Shown piece by piece: positions 1,345 to 64,000 of a DNA stretch of 64,000 bases. The notes under the pieces were generated by a model. It was not told where the DNA came from. It saw only the letters and a list, made by a program, of their open reading frames with translations, and searched no databases. Within the stretch, counting starts at the first letter, position 1, and every line of letters begins with the position of its first letter. Made by a program: the position numbers and the translations under genes. The DNA comes from a virus (Duplodnaviria > Caudoviricetes), in IMG/VR virus record IMGVR_UViG_3300013121_000026, positions 64,001 to 128,000 of that record; one strand, given 5' to 3'.

Positions 1345-1482
1345 ATGGGATTAAGTGATATCCGAGAAGTAATAAGCCGTCTAGTTTATAACAACTCGGA
1401 TATCCGTGTTTTTGTTCATAACCGTTCTCACTTTGAGTGGAATTGGTATAATGCTTATGAAATAACAGAAAGGTTTATATAA
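1345..1482 (+). CDS. 45 aa mini-protein ending ERFI (x-F-hydrophobic family)
   Basis: ATG 1345; TAA overlaps ATG of next gene; MGLSDIREVIS...ITERFI; weak SD. Confidence 0.5.
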   Translation: MGLSDIREVISRLVYNNSDIRVFVHNRSHFEWNWYNAYEITERFI

Positions 1483-41562: not shown

Positions 41563-42402
41563 CTATTTGTTTGTTCTGGCTTTTAATATTTTTTGTCTAA
41601 TTTCCTCGTTTAACCACATTTTTAGAGAACTCTTTGAGATTTTGTTTTTTGTTTCGTTAGAAACTGGTAACCTTCCTTTAATAAATCCATCTGGGCATTC
41701 AAAACACCACTTTTCGTTTGTACCATTATTCCACCAGTGTTTTCCTTTACGATTTTTTGACGCTGATTTGCTCCATGCTTCGGAATGCAATTTTCCTTTT
41801 TTGGCTAAAGATAATTTTTGCTTGTGTTCTTCCGTTAATTTTTTTCCTTTATTTAATTCACTCATTTTTCTTTTTGTTTCTTCAGTGTGTTTAAAATTAT
41901 TTTTCATCCACTCACTGTGTTTTTGAGCACTTTCCTTAGAAAATTTTCTTCCTTTATTAGGGCCAACAAAACCAGGTTTTAAAGAACAATGATTATCTCT
42001 AATTTTTTGTTTGTGTTCTTCTGTTAATTTTTTCTTTTTCCCTGATTCACTCATTTTTCTCCTGGTTTCCTCGGAGGTATTATTAAATTGTTTTCCATTA
42101 TTTGCTCTATTTAACCATTTTTCGTTTTTTACTGCATCTAATTTTGTTAAAACTTTTTCTTCACATTTCATAGTCTGTTCTTTGGTTTTAAATATCATTC
42201 TAACTTCTATAACATCAGGTTCTCCGTGTTGTTTACGGAATTGATGAACAATCTTAGAAGACGTAAAATAAGTTATCCATAAATCAGAAGGATTAGCTAA
42301 GTTGTTAGAGTTTGTGTGAGCATATCTACAACCACAATACCAACGATCTAAATTAGACCATCCAATTAAATAAGTATAAGGTTGATAAATAGTATTTGAC
42401 AT
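41563..42402 (-). mobile_element. Free-standing GIY-YIG (Seg-like) homing endonuclease with NUMOD3-like repeats
   Basis: YTYLIGW...WY.G.R, Y.TSS, ETRRKMSE and EEHKQK repeats, WWNNG; ATG 42402 with SD. Confidence 0.8.
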
Positions 42403-42471
42403 TTGCTGTATCTCCTTTTTAAACACCAGATATAGAGTCTGTGGCATTTGTCGATGCGCGACAGACACTAT

Positions 42472-42485
42472 TATTTATATAAATA
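42472..42485. promoter_or_regulatory. Palindromic back-to-back late promoters
   Basis: tatttatataaata: - 42472-42479, + 42478-42485. Confidence 0.8.
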
Positions 42486-58121: not shown

Positions 58122-59627
58122 TTAAGAATTAATAGGGCACTTCGGTGCCCTATTTTTTATCATTGCAATAGTACCACAATCCCATATTCTTTCATAGCCT
58201 CGTTCCTTCATAATTTCCCATTCAGGACGAGGATCACCAGGGGCAATTCTCTTTTTAACAAATCCTTGGCGATGTAATCTTTGAACGCTTTTGTTTAAAT
58301 TAACATACGAGTATGAAGGTGGATTATATTTTAATATCTCAAACCCATTATGATTATAAACATTACCATCAGACCTAGTTCTATCCGCATAAGAAATAAT
58401 ACTACCGGTATGTTCTTTTTCAAATGCACTTAGTAGTCTACTAAATCCACCACGAATATTGGTGTTAATCCTAGAACAAAATCTAACTAATTCCCAATCA
58501 TAGTTTTTATTATACCTGGATTTAGCAAAGGTCATGACTGCCACCACTTGTTGATCTAACAATAGTCCGTAATTAATTTGACTCATATCTTTGCCCTGAA
58601 TGTGATTATTGTTCAGGAAGTTATTTTTGGTATTCTTGTCTAGTGTAACAATTCTACAGTCTCTGGCGTTATAGTGCTGGGGTATTTTGTTTATCTTGTA
58701 CAGCAACATCGATTTCCAAATGTCTTTTTTATGTATCCAGTCATCACTAAAAATATGCAACAGTTGATAACCTTGGTTTTGACATTCTAGTGTTTTGTTT
58801 AGGTGATAATTGCGATCTTTACGAAGACTTTCATTTTGATGTTCTTCACGAAAAATATGGCTATATACGCCGTTGTATTCAATTGCTAAATTAAACTGAG
58901 GGATAACGATATCCAATTCTTTTCCATTTAGGATTGTTCTATCATTAATCTTTACTTCTACATACTGTTGAAGAAAATCTATTACTTCCTGACATTCCTT
59001 TGAAACAATAATTTTTTGTCTAGGATAGATGTTTGGATTATTAGCAATGATCTGATGATATTGTAACCATCTGCTTAGTGTAGCTTTGTTTGATTTAATT
59101 TCAGCACTAATGTCATCCAACGTTCTTTTGTTATTAATGTGTTGTTCTGTTAGCCATTGTTTGTTTCTAAGAAATGAGGTAGTCAAGGCATTAGATTCGT
59201 TGTATTTAACCATTGGAATATTAAATTGTTTGCAGGCTCTTTTGATTGGGATTTCTGATGTTCCAATCAGCTTGCCTATATCTTCATAAGCAAGCATTTC
59301 AACAATTCTCTTTTGATACAGCCAATCTTTATCAATTGGTATAATTTTTGATTTTCTAGCGCATTTTGAGGAACAATGATTTCGAAAGAAATTGGGATCA
59401 TTTTTCCTTTTGGTCTTATTCCAAGTAACATAATTACCACAATGACATTTGGGAAAGGTTTTAGAAGTATAGTTCTCTTTGAGTGCTATTAACCGTATTT
59501 TAATTGGTGTGTCAGCAGGCAACCAAGAAGTTTTTTCAATAACAAAGGATCGATTGCTTTTGTTTTTAGCAAAAGAAATGACGAAGTTTTTATCATTGAT
59601 TTTCTGAAATACTTCTTCTAAATTCAT
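58122..59627 (-). mobile_element. Hef-like homing endonuclease (Vsr/DUF559-like nuclease)
   Basis: ELDI..P...LAIEYNG.Y.H, K...C...G..L.HI..D.W, ARDC, H.QG, ISYAD...S.G..Y, IWDCG. Confidence 0.75.
58131..58158 (+). terminator. UUCG-tetraloop terminator
   Basis: aatagggcac TTCG gtgccctatttttt. Confidence 0.85.
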
Positions 59628-59734: not shown

Positions 59735-60353
59735 ATGTCTCTTGAAAAAGTTCGAAATTTAATTTCTACTATAACAACTCTCCCTGTATATACCTTTGTC
59801 CTCTGGGATAAAATAGTCAAACCTGACCAAGACCGTGTTCGTCTTGAAGGTAGACACTGCAACACTATAGACATAAACATGAGCTTTATTTTATGAAACA
59901 ATACGGCGTATTTTAAGTCATAGTGATCGTTCATATATAGTTAACAGGACACCTTTAAGGTTTGAAAATTTCGATGATTTTCTTACATGAACTTTCTATT
60001 TGTGTAAAAATGGGAGTAAATTAAAGTGAGCGATTATTTATTCATGTATTTGTCTGGCAAGATTATTGGTGAAGTAAGCAAAAAAATTAATTTTAACATT
60101 CTAGTTGTAAGTCGCATGATAACCGGACATGCAATAAGAAATGCAAGTTTTGTTCATGCTGAATTAGGAGTATTAAATAGTGACCGTCTGTTCAATTCGG
60201 GGTTTATGTACTGATGCAGGAATTAGATATCTTGCATACGAAACTGAATATCAAACATTTTCAAAGATTTCAGAGAAGTATTCTTTATTTGTTCGAAATG
60301 AGTTGGGTACATTAAATAGATTTTACTTAATTCATGATTTTGAACGACAATAA
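59735..60353 (+). CDS. Mini-protein array I: 59735-59896, 60026-60214, 60180-60353, plus broken member about 59892-59990
   Basis: Ends MSFIL, SGFMY, HDFERQ, DDFLT; AGGAG before 59735 and GTG 60180. Confidence 0.55.
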
Positions 60354-60373
60354 ATACTATTAAAAGGGAAAAA

Positions 60374-60907
60374 ATGTCAGCAACAGAAAACAATCCAAGT
60401 TCAAGTAATTATTTGACTTCTAATAAGTTTAGGTTTACTCTAAAAAGAGCGCCTAACATCAACTTCTTTTTAACAAAATGCAACCTGCCTGCGGTTTCAG
60501 CAGGGACAGCAATGCAATTGACTCCATTTGTTGATATTCCATTGCCCGGTCAAGAATTTAAATATTCACCACTTGAAATAACATTTTTTGTTAATGAAGG
60601 AATGGACAACTACTTGGAAATTTTTAACTGGATGAGAGCAATAGCGGGAAGTGACAATCTTGAAGATTACGCACCTTTAAAAAATCAACCAGGATGGTCA
60701 CCATATGGGCTAGCAAGTGAAGTTGTAGTTCATATTCTTAATAGCAGCAATGTTCCTCAGGTTGAAGTTACTTTTCATGATGCATGGCCAGCGGGAATGA
60801 CAGAGGTTAATTTTGATAGTACACTGGATACAGCAAATTATGCGCAGGTTGGTGCAGCATTCATGTACCGTTCATTTGATTTCCAGATTTTGACAACTTC
60901 AAAATAA
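60374..60907 (+). CDS. 3: Tail tube terminator gp3
   Basis: N.L....F.F...R.P...FF....NLP, F.V.E.M.NY.EI.NW, F.DAWP. Confidence 0.88.
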   Translation: MSATENNPSSSNYLTSNKFRFTLKRAPNINFFLTKCNLPAVSAGTAMQLTPFVDIPLPGQEFKYSPLEITFFVNEGMDNYLEIFNWMRAIAGSDNLEDYAPLKNQPGWSPYGLASEVVVHILNSSNVPQVEVTFHDAWPAGMTEVNFDSTLDTANYAQVGAAFMYRSFDFQILTTSK

Positions 60908-60918
60908 GATTGTATAAT
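60890..60918 (+). promoter_or_regulatory. Consensus sigma70 promoter at the end of gene 3
   Basis: TTGACA-N17-TATAAT. Confidence 0.75.
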
Positions 60919-62796
60919 GGAAAAAGTTTTTAACAAAACAGAAGCCATAAAAAGTAAAACATGGAATAGTCAATTTGCTAATGCCGTTCCGTATTTGTCT
61001 AAGTTAGATATTCTGAGGTATAAATTTAATAGTTTGGAAATGTTTGATGCCAGCTTTGTATAGTATTCGATATCAACTAGGAGACACGGAATACAAAATA
61101 AACTTATTCAATGTGTTACATTGTGTTAATAACTTATATGATTACGCAGGAGTGGACGTCTTTGGGAGTGTTAGATATAACATATCTATAGAAGCTATTG
61201 AATTATCATTTGAGGGGATTTGTTGGGTTTGAGAACACTATCATATAAGAATATTACTTTAGCGCTAAGGACAGAAGCCATATCAATTGAACTTTATTAT
61301 AAAATGCGAACTGAGTGGCCGCATTTTATGCAATTGATGCCACCACCTGATTTTAGATTATTAGAGGGTGATTTTCTCTGATGTTTCGAAAGTTTCATAT
61401 AGTTAATACTAAAATTAACGACCGAGTGGTGCAAGTGTCTAACCCACGAGGAAAGTATGACTACGCAGATTACTCATATTTTATAGCAGGCAAGATATCC
61501 AACGCATTGCTTCGGGTCCAATTAAATGGTGTTAAAGGATTTATATGAACACACTTGTTGCAATTAAACCTACTACGCATCTTATAATTGCTAAAATGGG
61601 ATATTATGACCCATCTCAGATGATTTTGTTTTGGAAGTTGAATCCGGACAACCTCCATATGAGTTTTGTATGAATAATGTTCTGTTCTTGGGAAACACAA
61701 ATTATAGGATTGATGAAAATAGTTGTGTATCAATTGCTAGGCGGCAGAAACAAATTTTTAATTCTCATCGTCAGTTTGAAATGGTGTTGTTATTAATACA
61801 AAGTAATAGAATAGGATGGTCACTTAACACTAGTGATCCTCTTTTCTTAAAGGTATTTACAGATGGATTTATCGAAGACTGAATATCGTAACGTTTATGC
61901 AAGGTTAAATCGACATTTTTCGTGTATGTCGTCGATTAGACAAAAAGCAGGTCATCAGAGCATGACAACGTTGTCATATTCCAGCTATCGAGCATTATCT
62001 GCTTTAGACTTACATCCAATAAACAGCGAGATTACAAGTATTTTAAATGACATGAGATTTGTATGACATGGGTTTATGAAATGTTGAGAGATGTTGATTA
62101 TGATTTAGAGGAGCAAATTTTTGTAGGTGAATGATGATAAAATTTCATTATATAGGTCTTAAAATAATGACAGTATTGAAAGCAAAAAACATGCTTATAG
62201 ATCAAATTGACTATCAAGTTTTTTATGGTGGAGAAATTCCTAATTTCCTTAATGACTTTAGGTTTTCTTTCATATGAATATTCATCCATATGAATTAGAT
62301 GATTATGCAATGATTGCTTATCTGGAACGAGCTATGTCTAAATGTGACAGGGTAAGGTTTAATATAGTTAGGCAAATTAATTACCATAGACATAGCATTG
62401 TGTACTTGCACCACTCGGTTCATGAGGAACGAGCATTGACTCAAAGATTTGGTTTTTTAGAATAGGATTTCAAATGCTTGATATAAAAGAATTAGCAGTG
62501 GTTGAAAACACAACTCGTAATATGTGCTATAAACACATTTATGGAAATCAATTTGATCCACATATTAAAATTTTATCATTATTCTATGAAACACATCGAT
62601 TTGAAGAAACATTATGGGAAGGTTTCATATGATGGGCTATGAGTTAATTTATACGTCACCGGCATTAAAAATAGATGGTAAAACAGTGATGTGTTTTTAC
62701 CACCCTTTTATTGCAAACATTTATAATTCATTAGCTGGTAAGCATTTAAGTAATGAATTAATTAAATATGCAACATTTATGGATTTTTTAAGATGA
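60917..62796 (+). CDS. Mini-protein array II (12 ORFs): 60917-61063, 61047-61232, 61229-61381, 61381-61548, 61545-61673, 61670-61882, 61863-62066, 62063-62134, 62131-62277, 62274-62465, 62474-62632, 62629-62796
   Basis: Near gap-free tiling, mostly ATGA/TGATG overlaps; shared C-terminal x-F-[IVL]. Confidence 0.65.
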
Positions 62797-63227
62797 CGCT
62801 TGAACAAATAATTGACAACTGGAAAAAAGATTCACCAATTCGCGGGGATGAATTGGGAGAAGAAGCGGGTAATGTTGCTATTCTTCATCAACGGTATCTG
62901 GAATGGTTCACAAAAGAACGACTAACATTACGTAAACTAGAGTCGGACATGAAGAAATTAAAATTGGAAAAATGGGAACATTATATCCAGGGTCCCAGCA
63001 AAGAAACCAAAGAAAAAGGCTGGAAAATTCCAGCGAGAGGTGCAGTAATTAAGAGTGATGCTGGGTTGTATATTGATGCAGATGATGATATAAATACATT
63101 GCAACTAAAAATTGATTATCAAAAAGAGAAAGTTGATGCACTGGAAAGCATCATTAAGATGATTAATAATAGAGGATATGCTATAAAGAATATGATTGAT
63201 TATTTGCAATGGTCAGGAGCACAGTGA
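62793..63227 (+). CDS. uvsY: Recombination mediator UvsY
   Basis: W.KDS.I....L..E...LH..YL, YI.AD, I..R...IKN.I....W; follows gene 3. Confidence 0.9.
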   Translation: MTLEQIIDNWKKDSPIRGDELGEEAGNVAILHQRYLEWFTKERLTLRKLESDMKKLKLEKWEHYIQGPSKETKEKGWKIPARGAVIKSDAGLYIDADDDINTLQLKIDYQKEKVDALESIIKMINNRGYAIKNMIDYLQWSGAQ

Positions 63228-63539
63228 TGATTCCTTATAACATAAATTTCCATGTAGAGATGAAGATAGATCAAGCTCTTTTTAATCGCATTAGGTTTAA
63301 TAGGTATGTATTTGATAGATTGTGGTGTCATCTGCTACTAGATGCAGACTTTTTGAGGAATAAATGATAGAATGAGCAATAAAAGACTACAGACACAAAA
63401 CTTACATTCACAAAATTTATGGGTTACTAATGCTTATGTAGTGAATTTTGTATATGATTTTGTTCTAAAAACCTATGAGCAGGAACAACATAAGGGGTTA
63501 CTTATACCAACTTTAATTAAGAAGACAAGATTTCATTGA
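63227..63539 (+). CDS. Mini-protein array III: 63227-63367 (ends ADFLRNK), 63372-63539 (ends TRFH)
   Basis: ATG starts; first is coupled to uvsY. Confidence 0.55.
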
Positions 63540-63551
63540 TTAGAGGTTTAA

Positions 63552-63740
63552 ATGACTGAATATTGGGTAATTGGTGGTGAATTTAATTCACTAAATTTTC
63601 ATACGTTGGATCCAGATTCCAAACAGATTTTTGGTCCATTTAATACTAGAACAGAAGCCGAAGAAAAATGGCGAGAAGTATCTGAACAATTTAGATACAA
63701 GGCCACTTTCAGGTTTAGAATTGTAACAGTGGATAATTAA
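63552..63740 (+). CDS. DUF4170-like small protein
   Basis: YWVIGGEF.S..F......FGPF.....A...W......A..RF.I; SD GAGG. Confidence 0.65.
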   Translation: MTEYWVIGGEFNSLNFHTLDPDSKQIFGPFNTRTEAEEKWREVSEQFRYKATFRFRIVTVDN

Positions 63741-63907
63741 TGTATATTCATAATACTATCGTGACAGAAGCTATAGCTGATATCGAATGGCTAGCTCATT
63801 ATCATTTGTTTAAAAAAGCAAATGTTGAAATAGGTGATTGGATTAGTGTCAGTTCGTTGAATGATTCATTTGGGGTTGGGGACGGAGCACTCTTTTGGTT
63901 AGAATAG
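63740..63907 (+). CDS. 55 aa mini-protein (ends LFWLE); another ORF from TTG 63895 runs off the window
   Basis: TAATG overlap with previous gene. Confidence 0.5.
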   Translation: MYIHNTIVTEAIADIEWLAHYHLFKKANVEIGDWISVSSLNDSFGVGDGALFWLE

Positions 63908-64000
63908 GGTACACATTACGAGTTGCTGATAGGATTGAACGTTTTTTAAACAAAAGCTCTCCGAACGTGAGTAATATTGTTAATATTAAATTGCATGATG

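Follow-up and report, generated by a model that had tools for sequence, protein, structure and literature searches.

Setting of the mini-gene array

Why do about 20 orphan mini-genes of unrelated body, lying between the conserved genes 3, uvsY and uvsW of one phage, so often end in phenylalanine followed by an aliphatic residue? The phage is a distant T4-like virus from activated sludge, and the window analysed here is a stretch of 64,000 nucleotides of its genome. We found a + strand chain of 20 mini-ORFs (23-70 aa) that fills the span 59735-64059, with tight stop-start overlaps (ATGA or TGATG) in 10 of the 20. The original prediction counted 18 such ORFs plus an outlier at 1345-1482; the chain comes to 20, with an extra member at 63895-64059 that runs past the window end. 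GTG is the one start available to 60180-60353, and TTG was needed for 61229-61381 and 63895-64059. The features, in window coordinates, are as follows.

59735..59896, +, mini-ORF, 53 aa, MSFIL tail; no start within about 130 nt downstream
60044..60214, +, mini-ORF, 56 aa, SGFMY tail; TGATG overlap, ATG at 60214
60180..60353, +, mini-ORF, 57 aa, GTG start, HDFERQ tail; Phe without aliphatic partner
60214-60315, +, alternative call to 60180..60353, 33 aa; either may be the gene
60374..60907, +, gene 3, tail completion / sheath stabiliser, assigned by synteny; adjoins uvsY in relatives
60890..60918, +, sigma-70 promoter, perfect consensus; overlaps the gene 3 stop and the first mini-ORF ATG
60917..61063, +, mini-ORF, 48 aa, ASFV tail; next start (61047) is 5' of the F-V codons
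61047..61232, +, mini-ORF, 61 aa, ICWV tail; Trp-Val replaces Phe-aliphatic
61229..61381, +, mini-ORF, about 50 aa, TTG start, GDFL tail; TGATG overlap
61381..61548, +, mini-ORF, 55 aa, KGFI tail; ATGA joint GGA TTT ATA TGA
61545..61673, +, mini-ORF, 42 aa, MSFV tail; ATGA joint
61670..61882, +, mini-ORF, 70 aa, DGFIED tail; next start (61863) is 5' of the F-I codons
61863..62066, +, mini-ORF, 67 aa, MRFV tail; ATGA joint
62063..62134, +, mini-ORF, 23 aa, IFVGE tail; ATGA joint
62131..62277, +, mini-ORF, 48 aa, FSFI tail, Phe as TTC; ATGA joint
62274..62465, +, mini-ORF, 63 aa, FGFLE tail; stop TAG, 8-nt gap, end overlaps the promoter-like site 62436-62463
62474..62632, +, mini-ORF, 52 aa, EGFI tail, Phe as TTC; ATGA joint; own start site non-coding (TAGGATTTCAAATG)
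62629..62796, +, mini-ORF, 55 aa, MDFLR tail; ATGA joint with uvsY
62793..63227, +, uvsY, conserved anchor (PF11056)
63227..63367, +, mini-ORF, 46 aa (52 aa from ATG 63209), ADFLRNK tail
63372..63539, +, mini-ORF, 55 aa, TRFH tail; Phe at -2, aliphatic partner absent
63552..63740, +, DUF4170 protein, 62 aa, TVDN tail (Pfam E=6.7e-15)
63740..63907, +, mini-ORF, 55 aa, LFWLE tail; Trp-Leu
63895..64000 (to 64059, beyond the window), +, mini-ORF, 54 aa, TTG start, SGFFFLD tail; overlaps the uvsW start
1345..1482, +, outlying mini-ORF, 45 aa (71 aa from an upstream start), ERFI tail; TAATG joint with a DUF6745 gene

The mini-ORFs are genuine coding sequence, organised as tightly coupled cistrons with host-type promoters recognised by consensus matches. 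Their codon-position composition correlates with that of the large genes at r=0.95, compared with 0.56 for an open-frame null. Both of the sigma70-type sites claimed earlier were located, one a perfect TTGACA-17-TATAAT at 60890-60918 (12/12) and the other a 10/12 match at 62436-62463; the total number of promoter-like sites in the region was not above shuffled expectation. The tails quoted in the original prediction were letter-for-letter right on re-translation, and its view that the bodies are dissimilar was borne out: BLASTP among the region ORFs gave no pair at E<0.05, and a leave-one-out HMM on the bodies stayed at background (mean z 0.16, p=0.49). The array is thus not a paralogous one at the level of detectable homology, and the one true paralog family lies at genome 47.6-48.3 kb.

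The DUF4170 ORF (63552..63740) is the only chain member with a known family, and it lacks the motif. PHROG and Pfam give no family for ORF 59735..59896, ORF 61670..61882 has zero homologs among 5.8e9 proteins, and ORF 61863..62066 has a single marginal match among 1.8e9 representatives. The AF2 models of ORFs 61381..61548 and 62629..62796 were of low confidence.

The tail motif is specific to this genome

F-[ILVM] was found in the last 6 residues of 15 of the 20 chain ORFs, and W-[ILVM] in two more (ICWV and FWLE). When ORFs were called by a single mechanical pipeline, 36/141 small ones in this genome carried such tails, against 8% expected (p=7e-10). The same pipeline gave 4-10% in T4, Cr30 and P-SSM4, at expectation, and 950 kb of relatives showed such tails in 4%. 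Tails with F-[ILVM] are present in 30/113 small + strand ORFs (about 8 expected) and in 7/143 large ORFs. In a genome-wide, length-greedy ORF set, Phe stood at position -2 in 18 cases versus 5.7 expected (p=1e-5), and it was the sole residue for which that position showed enrichment. The enrichment is concentrated in two places, the array region and a paralog cluster at genome 47.6-48.6 kb; outside these two, Phe in the last 8 codons is enriched just 1.25-fold. The ATGA-coupled large genes said earlier to be free of the motif (GMTP, KNSK, VTTE, LKNQ, KALQ, VKAL, ITRT) proved so on re-check. Enrichment over other coupled genes, a check set beforehand, came out strong, so that the attempted refutation failed. 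The tail pattern is confirmed as real, genome-specific and statistically solid.

Phenylalanine is held in register at the joints

The two or three codons 5' of Phe carry the Shine-Dalgarno of the next cistron, and for this reason they are purine-rich: RRN makes up 74% of the codons immediately before Phe versus 34% in bodies, and Ser at this place is AGY 6:1. The array joints are coupled joints, with stop-start overlap and SD-like purines 5-12 nt upstream, and half of them are exact overlaps, as in ATGA/TAATG coupling. In contrast to the array, coupling elsewhere in this genome and in T4, Cr30 and P-SSM4 yields no Phe-aliphatic tails.

Within the last 8 codons of the 20 region ORFs, T-runs holding an in-frame Phe are enriched 3.6-fold (p=3e-6) and out-of-frame T-runs 1.0-fold, and the T content of ORF ends is not raised outside the Phe codons. 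Phe alone is enriched at tails; other U-rich or A/U-only codons are not. An in-frame TTT is present in 19/24 T-runs at tight joints behind small ORFs, compared with 8/23 at non-coding start sites read in the same virtual register (p=0.003). When 88 non-coding start sites were translated virtually in the ATGA register, F-[ILVM] came out in 8%, versus 5% behind large genes and 33% behind small ORFs, and the T-runs track a small upstream ORF rather than a small downstream gene. The joint sequence alone does not account for the tail residues; the 8% from virtual translation and the in-frame-only T-runs support the earlier view that SD and coupling are insufficient.

Elsewhere in the genome, 18 of 24 tight small-ORF joints lack the motif, which indicates that coupling does not need Phe-aliphatic. 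The motif is also present in six tails whose Phe lies outside the spacer (MSFIL, ASFV, DGFIED, FGFLE, ADFLRNK, FFFLD). The non-coding start sites at 62474 and 63552 read GG(A)TTT as well, and joint 27781 has the same word out of frame. In ORF 61047..61232, the SD GAGGGG and an out-of-frame TTT stand ahead of TTG starts at 61223/61229. Codon choice for Phe does not discriminate between DNA and protein constraint, TTT making up 89% of Phe codons in tails and 82% in bodies. In EGFI and FSFI, Phe is kept as TTC where the T-run shifts by one base, and members of the paralog family at genome 47.6-48.3 kb retain F-[IL] while using ATT, CTG, TTA and CTT for the aliphatic residue.

A proposed protein-level tail over the coupling joint

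The reading that we favour, though with reserve, is that the tail serves the protein, as a hydrophobic C-terminal tag superimposed on the coupling joint. Every mini-gene end would then be a dual-coded joint, whose Phe-aliphatic pair is kept for the protein and not for the RNA. The handle would be [polar or small]-F/W-[ILVM] followed by 0-4 more residues, a short hydrophobic C-terminal anchor that may be common to otherwise unrelated orphan early proteins. This anchor could plug a hydrophobic pocket of a single putative partner shared by all of them, which would be a docking site or a degradation/quality-control machine.

A constant tail on unrelated bodies argues against a mere relic, which should have decayed alongside them. 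Trp-aliphatic in 2 of the 5 tails that are not Phe-aliphatic, together with the retention of TTC and the varied codons of F-[IL] in the paralog family, points to conservative variation at the protein level. Against a protein tag count the residue before Phe, which is set by nucleotides, the GG(A)TTT words at non-coding start sites and out of frame at joint 27781, and the mere 1.25-fold Phe enrichment outside the array region and the paralog cluster; a motif of two residues, moreover, is a slender basis for a binding site. In the region, 13/14 ORFs with a start within -20..+14 carry the motif versus 2/6 without, and elsewhere in the genome 9/37 with a nearby downstream start versus 3/38 without. 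This tie to a nearby start argues against an autonomous protein tag, which should be indifferent to it; there is some confounding in this association, since small ORFs that stand alone are frequently spurious and some ORFs of the region begin with TTG.

We compared the array tails with two systems in which such tails dock. The T4 clamp-binding tails of gp43, gp55 and gp33, read from the T4 genome, are LDFLFG, LDFLYEAND and LDFLL. Like these, the array tails form a hydrophobic C-terminus with 0-4 trailing residues, and four or five read [ML]-D-F-L or D-x-D-F-L; unlike them, most have neither the [ST]-L in front nor the acidic residue. D-F-L occurs in the region only in MDFLR, ADFLRNK and GDFL, and also in MDFLNDV at genome 8402. 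The full motif, taken as [ST]-L-D-F-L-[FYL] within the last 10 residues, matched 0/20 region tails and was rejected. The phage's own family B polymerase gp43 ends in S-L-E-S-I-F-G, and zero mini-ORF tails match L-E-x-I-F-G; its gp45 (genome 148182-148877) is assigned by a weak PF02916 match plus synteny. The clamp comparison made in the original prediction fits loosely, through D-F-L in four or five tails, and fails for the full motif and the cognate polymerase tail. The sliding clamp would be a minor partner candidate that fits the D-F-L subset only.

In HslU, a conserved Phe third from the C-terminus stands with two aliphatic residues at the end of an AAA+ unfoldase, and the octapeptide EDLSRFIL docks into HslV and activates it (PMC4106860). 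The array tails resemble it in their free C-terminal [polar]-F-aliphatic, the kind of peptide that plugs a hydrophobic pocket, and one ends in S-F-I-L; this may be no more than a likeness. In contrast to HslU, the array proteins have no AAA+ body and their Phe is mostly second from last, not third. An HslU-type activation tail was rejected, since MSFIL is the sole tail with this spacing and the tails sit on orphan bodies of 23-70 aa. The HslU and T4 clamp tails are precedents for free C-terminal Phe-aliphatic docking tails.

A possible spread of the joint by cassette recombination

The main alternative, to which we give somewhat less weight, is that cassette recombination multiplied a coupling joint that keeps its register. 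A founder joint (purine codons, TTT, NTA, TGA over ATG) would have been both stop-restart signal and microhomology, and unrelated mini-genes would have been captured, lost and swapped at it. Phe-aliphatic would be the reading of this DNA word, and the frame would be held since the word includes stop and start, under selection on re-initiation. The motif does coincide with the next start-site overlap, with SD purines immediately 5' of Phe; the words TTYRTATGA and T6A-RRA-TGA recur; and the motif is confined mainly to two arrays, not all small genes.

The relatives also fit this alternative. Genes 3, uvsY and uvsW are directly adjacent in phiM12 and five metagenomic relatives, and 950 kb of relatives hold at most 5 small ORFs per locus, which indicates that the orphan genes of the arrays were inserted specifically in this lineage. 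One joint has a copy: 35 nt covering the MDFLR joint and the first 7 uvsY codons recur at genome 8567-8600 (E=4e-6). Self-BLASTN of the junctions found no repeated DNA beyond this pair, and so the DNA cassette junction, offered earlier as the alternative, gained one duplicated joint but no general repeat. In addition, the distance from Phe to stop varies from 0 to 4 codons, 12 different codons serve for the aliphatic residue, and the six tails with the motif outside spacers do not fit. Trp substitution and TTC retention are unexpected for a DNA word, and the phage's other coupled arrays have A-rich joints.

PeSL cassettes of T4-type hyperplastic regions are each flanked by a conserved promoter and stem-loop of tens of bases (Arbiol et al. 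2010, PMC2839356; Comeau et al. 2014, PMC4122927). As in these regions, small orphan early genes with host-type early promoters lie between core genes, the array is absent in relatives, and modular gain and loss would be expected; in position, between core genes and missing in relatives, the array is such a variable region. Unlike PeSL cassettes, it has stop-start joints and two promoter-like sites per about 20 genes, and its common feature is a two-residue protein tail, with junction repeats absent. PeSL identity was rejected, since neither self-BLASTN nor the two promoter-like sites gave promoter and stem-loop flanks for each unit.

Other explanations

It is improbable that the tails are a generic by-product, in which a gene end over an SD and an A/U-rich spacer often reads x-F-[ILV]. 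Phe does stand 5-11 nt 5' of the next ATG (about 20/31 genome-wide), right after GGA/GAG/AGG, and RRN is enriched before it. However, the 88 non-coding starts (8%) and the large-gene joints (5%) rarely read this way, the genome's spacers are A-rich, out-of-frame T-runs are not enriched, and T4, Cr30 and P-SSM4, which resemble this phage in G+C and share its kind of coupling, remain at expectation. Virtual translation, T-run register and comparator phages largely refute this explanation.

Ranking just behind it, and equally hard to credit, is a translational-repressor operator, a U-rich stretch by the AUG that would bind a RegA homolog and shut the early mini-genes jointly. T4 RegA binds U-rich sites overlapping the AUG. 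The phage has a RegA homolog at genome 150206-150646 (PF01818, E=7e-34), and start sites of the SD-TTT type are found in front of uvsY, RNase H and a DUF6745 gene as well. However, the TTT-AUG distance is variable (5, 8, 9, 11 and beyond), the phase-lock to the upstream frame is left unexplained, the motif follows the upstream ORF and not the downstream one, and T4 has RegA without such tails.

Recoding, with in-frame T_TTT_TTA near stops as -1 slippery sites that fuse consecutive mini-ORFs, is very improbable. About 85 T6 runs occur inside ORFs; 16 of them, where about 3 would be expected, are no more than 16 nt from a stop, and all 16 have the X_XXY_YYZ register. The slippery heptamer T_TTT_TTA or T_TTT_TTG is present in zero frame in 13 tails, and where a joint reads FLE, FLK or FLR, slippage by -1 would carry the ribosome in frame into the next ATG. 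Yet the majority of region tails contain a lone TTT, not a slippery sequence, the same register is also the commonest among T6 runs inside ORF bodies, and the -1 frame reaches the next ORF at ATGA joints but not at uncoupled tails. A cursory look showed no stimulatory structure.

Finally, an artefact of ORFs and starts chosen by eye in an AT-rich genome, where Phe and Ile/Leu are common, can be dismissed, because the tails are set by stops alone, a mechanical ORF set repeats the enrichment against the ORFs' own composition, and three phages of like G+C lack the pattern.

Implications for the phage

Taken together with the protein-level reading, the array may be, as we suggest with somewhat greater caution, a library of unrelated early mini-proteins with one aromatic-aliphatic handle written over the restart signal of the next gene. 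The outcome for the phage could be a set of exchangeable small effectors with a single handle. If this is true, a new effector would gain, in one step, both a place in the operon and access to a shared machine for docking or turnover.

Anatomy of the mini-gene chain

The phage record is 160,761 bp long with direct terminal repeats (IMG/VR), and the window comprises its bases 64001-128000; positions marked "genome" refer to the whole record. The region 59735-64059 carries 20 mini-ORFs (23-70 aa) in an unbroken + strand chain. A mechanical ORF listing gave the order as three mini-ORFs, gene 3, twelve mini-ORFs, uvsY, and five mini-ORFs into uvsW.

60374-60907, + strand, gene 3 (mechanical ORF listing)
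62793-63227, + strand, uvsY (mechanical ORF listing)
63552-63740, + strand, DUF4170 (Pfam), the sole mini-ORF with a known family

We found exact ATGA or TGATG/TAATG overlaps at ten joints between consecutive ORFs. The tail sequences quoted in the original prediction were exact on re-reading, and its two sigma70-type promoters were located: a perfect TTGACA-17-TATAAT at 60890-60918 and a 10/12 match at 62436-62463. The 12/12 consensus site overlaps the gene 3 stop codon. Since its -10 box contains the first mini-ORF's ATG (60917), transcripts would begin downstream of that ATG.

The mini-ORFs are coding sequence. Their codon-position composition followed that of the phage's large genes (r=0.95, versus 0.56 for open-conditioned shuffled sequence), although a hexamer-type coding score trained on large genes was near zero for most of them. 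Searches of PHROGs and Pfam with all mini-ORFs returned nothing except DUF4170. No homolog of 61670-61882 was found among 5.8e9 proteins, and 61863-62066 had one marginal match among 1.8e9 representatives. The bodies had been described as largely dissimilar, and we detected no similarity among them. AlphaFold2 runs on single sequences of two mini-ORFs gave pLDDT values of 53 and 66, too low to interpret.

Next to the array, the minus strand carries a 501-aa ORF (58122-59627) which runs against all surrounding genes and weakly matches an MTES_1575 restriction-endonuclease-like domain and an HTH. Because it is absent at the same position in relatives, this ORF is probably a mobile endonuclease gene.

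Lineage specificity of the arrays

The phage is a distant T4-like myovirus. Its uvsY shares no more than 40% identity with that of isolates (phiM12, Cr30, cyanophages) and 50-56% with that of the nearest metagenomic relatives. Region DNA had zero matches among 50,697 phage records in near and distant search modes. Near-identical contigs were present at low depth (~5x) in activated-sludge sequencing runs, and short identical pieces of the phage in two other studies' sequencing data. Only five differences were seen in total, which does not suffice for pN/pS, and none of the listed runs with the phage was an RNA dataset.

Relatives reached via uvsY and gp23 were at most 56-68% identical and lacked the arrays. 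Gene 3, uvsY and uvsW lie side by side in phiM12 and five metagenomic relatives, and the 950 kb around gp23 of ~95 relatives contained no locus with more than five small ORFs. The arrays were therefore inserted into a conserved module and are specific to this phage's lineage.

Enrichment of Phe-aliphatic tails

We counted F-[ILVM] in the last six residues of each product, hereafter the tail. Whole-genome counts were taken from a length-greedy ORF set, used in place of coding-potential gene calling; this set loses several region ORFs to antisense shadows, and the genome-wide counts are therefore conservative. The tail pattern exceeds chance. It was present in 30/113 small + strand ORFs of the whole genome (per-position background 1.56%) and in 7/143 ORFs of at least 90 aa. 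At position -2, Phe was the sole enriched residue (18 versus 5.7 expected, p=1e-5), and 23/29 Phe residues at -2 or -3 preceded I, L, V or M, compared with 29% in ORF bodies.

When both strands were passed through one pipeline, 36/141 ORFs of the phage carried the tail (p=7e-10), whereas T4 (10/104), Cr30 (7/136) and P-SSM4 (4/92) were all at expectation; all four genomes have 35-38% G+C. The enrichment is thus confirmed and specific to this phage genome among those compared. The tails are concentrated by place, with 15/20 ORFs of the region, 6/8 of a cluster at genome 47.6-48.6 kb that includes five true paralogs, and 14/90 elsewhere. Phe as the final residue is also ~2x expected in large proteins of this phage (15/136) and of T4 (15/170), mostly as TTT/TTC then TAA, with no tie to TAATG overlaps.

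A possible protein-level tag or recombination joint

Tentatively, we read the tail as a C-terminal hydrophobic tag, common to unrelated orphan proteins and laid over the coupling joint, such that one stretch would serve both as protein end and as next start. The register of the T-runs and the specificity for Phe favour this reading. Within the last eight codons of region ORFs, in-frame Phe T-runs were 3.6x enriched and out-of-frame runs 1.0x, and T outside Phe codons was not elevated. An in-frame TTT was contained in 19/24 T-runs at tight joints behind small ORFs, versus 8/23 at non-coding sites read in the same virtual register (p=0.003). Sequence variants also favour a tag: at two joints with the T-run displaced by one base, Phe is kept as TTC, and 2/5 motif-less region tails have Trp-aliphatic instead. 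Further, the aliphatic residue is spelled by twelve codons, and a diverged paralog family keeps the tail with different Leu/Ile codons. This family lies before the window (genome 47601-48319) as five tandem paralogs of 47-51 aa with 37-55% identity and a conserved core of C-[YW]-x-x-S-P and E-x-[YF]-x-x-F; in all but one of them, an x-F-[IL] tail persists at an ATGA joint. TTT versus TTC usage does not separate DNA from protein constraint.

The docking role proposed in the original prediction is plausible. The HslU tail EDLSRFIL shows a free C-terminus of the [polar]-F-aliphatic kind serving as a docking plug (PMC4106860), to which the mini-ORF tails may be likened by analogy only. The T4 clamp-binding tails read from its genome are LDFLFG, LDFLYEAND and LDFLL. 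The suggested comparison with such peptides stands as a resemblance, not as membership. Only four or five mini-ORF tails contain D-F-L, and the phage's own polymerase ends in SLESIFG.

The main rival remains the junction DNA that had been offered as an alternative, namely an in-register joint spread by recombination and retained by selection on re-initiation. We consider this somewhat less likely than a tag; both explanations can hold together. The joint reading is favoured by the tendency of the motif to have a start close downstream, by recurrence of the words TTYRTATGA and T6A-RRA-TGA, and by two non-coding start sites in the region that read GG(A)TTT. It also draws on a copied stretch at the joint of 62629-62796 with uvsY; apart from this pair, however, no junction DNA is repeated. 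The 35 nt at 62779-62813 run from the MDFL tail across the stop-start overlap into uvsY, of which they include the initial seven codons (MTLEQII). Their copy at genome 8567-8600, 118 kb away (33/36 identity, 1-nt indel), forms the joint of two small ORFs, the downstream one beginning MTFEQLI, and the pair looks like a recombination footprint. Elsewhere, two longer internal repeats link distant genes: 42109-42485 with genome 151122-151485 (381 nt, 82% identity, in minus-strand ORFs), and genome 143084-143236 with 144836-144994 (159 nt, 93% identity).

Minor and rejected explanations

Two minor explanations concern the T-rich stretch itself. As an operator, it would be bound by the phage's homolog of the translational repressor RegA (genome 150206-150646, PF01818, E=7e-34), which adjoins the clamp (genome 148182-148877) and clamp-loader genes. 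Start sites with Shine-Dalgarno (SD)-TTT precede uvsY, RNase H (genome 51291) and the DUF6745 gene (window 1482). As a site of -1 slippage, it would act through in-register T_TTT_TTA heptamers, which are ~5x over-represented within 16 nt of stops but account for a minority of tails only. On the + strand of the whole genome, sixteen T6-T8 runs lie at most 16 nt from a stop codon (~3 expected), all in the NNT TTT TTN register of the classical -1 slippery heptamer.

The tail is only partly the ribosome-binding site of the next gene. The codon before the tail Phe was purine-purine-N in 74% of cases; the figure was 34% in bodies and 32% for codons ahead of internal F-aliphatic pairs (p=2e-6). Ser at this position was AGY six times and TCN once (AGY share in bodies 36%). 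The position is thus set by nucleotides and is the SD of the next gene. The Phe-aliphatic pair itself, in contrast, is unlike the start sites of this phage: a generic by-product of SD and spacer is largely refuted by the T-run, register and TTC/Trp results together with those from start sites and motif-free joints, in agreement with the original claim that SD and coupling alone do not explain it. Start-site spacers in the phage genome are A-rich, and when 88 non-coding start sites were translated virtually in the ATGA register, 8% gave the motif. It occurred at 33% of joints behind small ORFs and at 5% of those behind large genes; T-runs were present in 16/39 cases with a small upstream ORF and in 1/15 where a small gene followed a large one. 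In six region tails the motif lies outside any SD-to-ATG spacer, and 18/24 tight small-ORF joints elsewhere in the genome lack it.

TTTATA as a minus-strand late promoter and the joints as -10 boxes were dropped for poor matches, judged by eye, and T6 runs as terminators were ruled out by the absence of upstream hairpins.

Implications for T4-type phages

Coupled orphan mini-genes are already known from the plastic regions of T4-type phages; the Phe-aliphatic tails are the new element in the arrays described here. PeSL repeats belong to T4-type hyperplastic regions (PMC2839356, PMC4122927); the setting here is such a region, but the array lacks these repeats. If the tail is instead a joint for recombination and re-initiation, it would offer T4-type genomes a compact means of gene shuffling other than PeSL cassettes. 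Under either reading, C-terminal motifs on coupled genes need checking against the start site that they overlap, for which virtual-frame translation, in-frame versus out-of-frame runs and comparator genomes are reusable tests.

In large phages, much of the gene content that lacks an explanation consists of small orphan early genes. If the tail is a shared handle, it would make about 20-35 orphan genes accessible to experiment together for the first time, and would show how few codons give new genes both expression and a cellular address.
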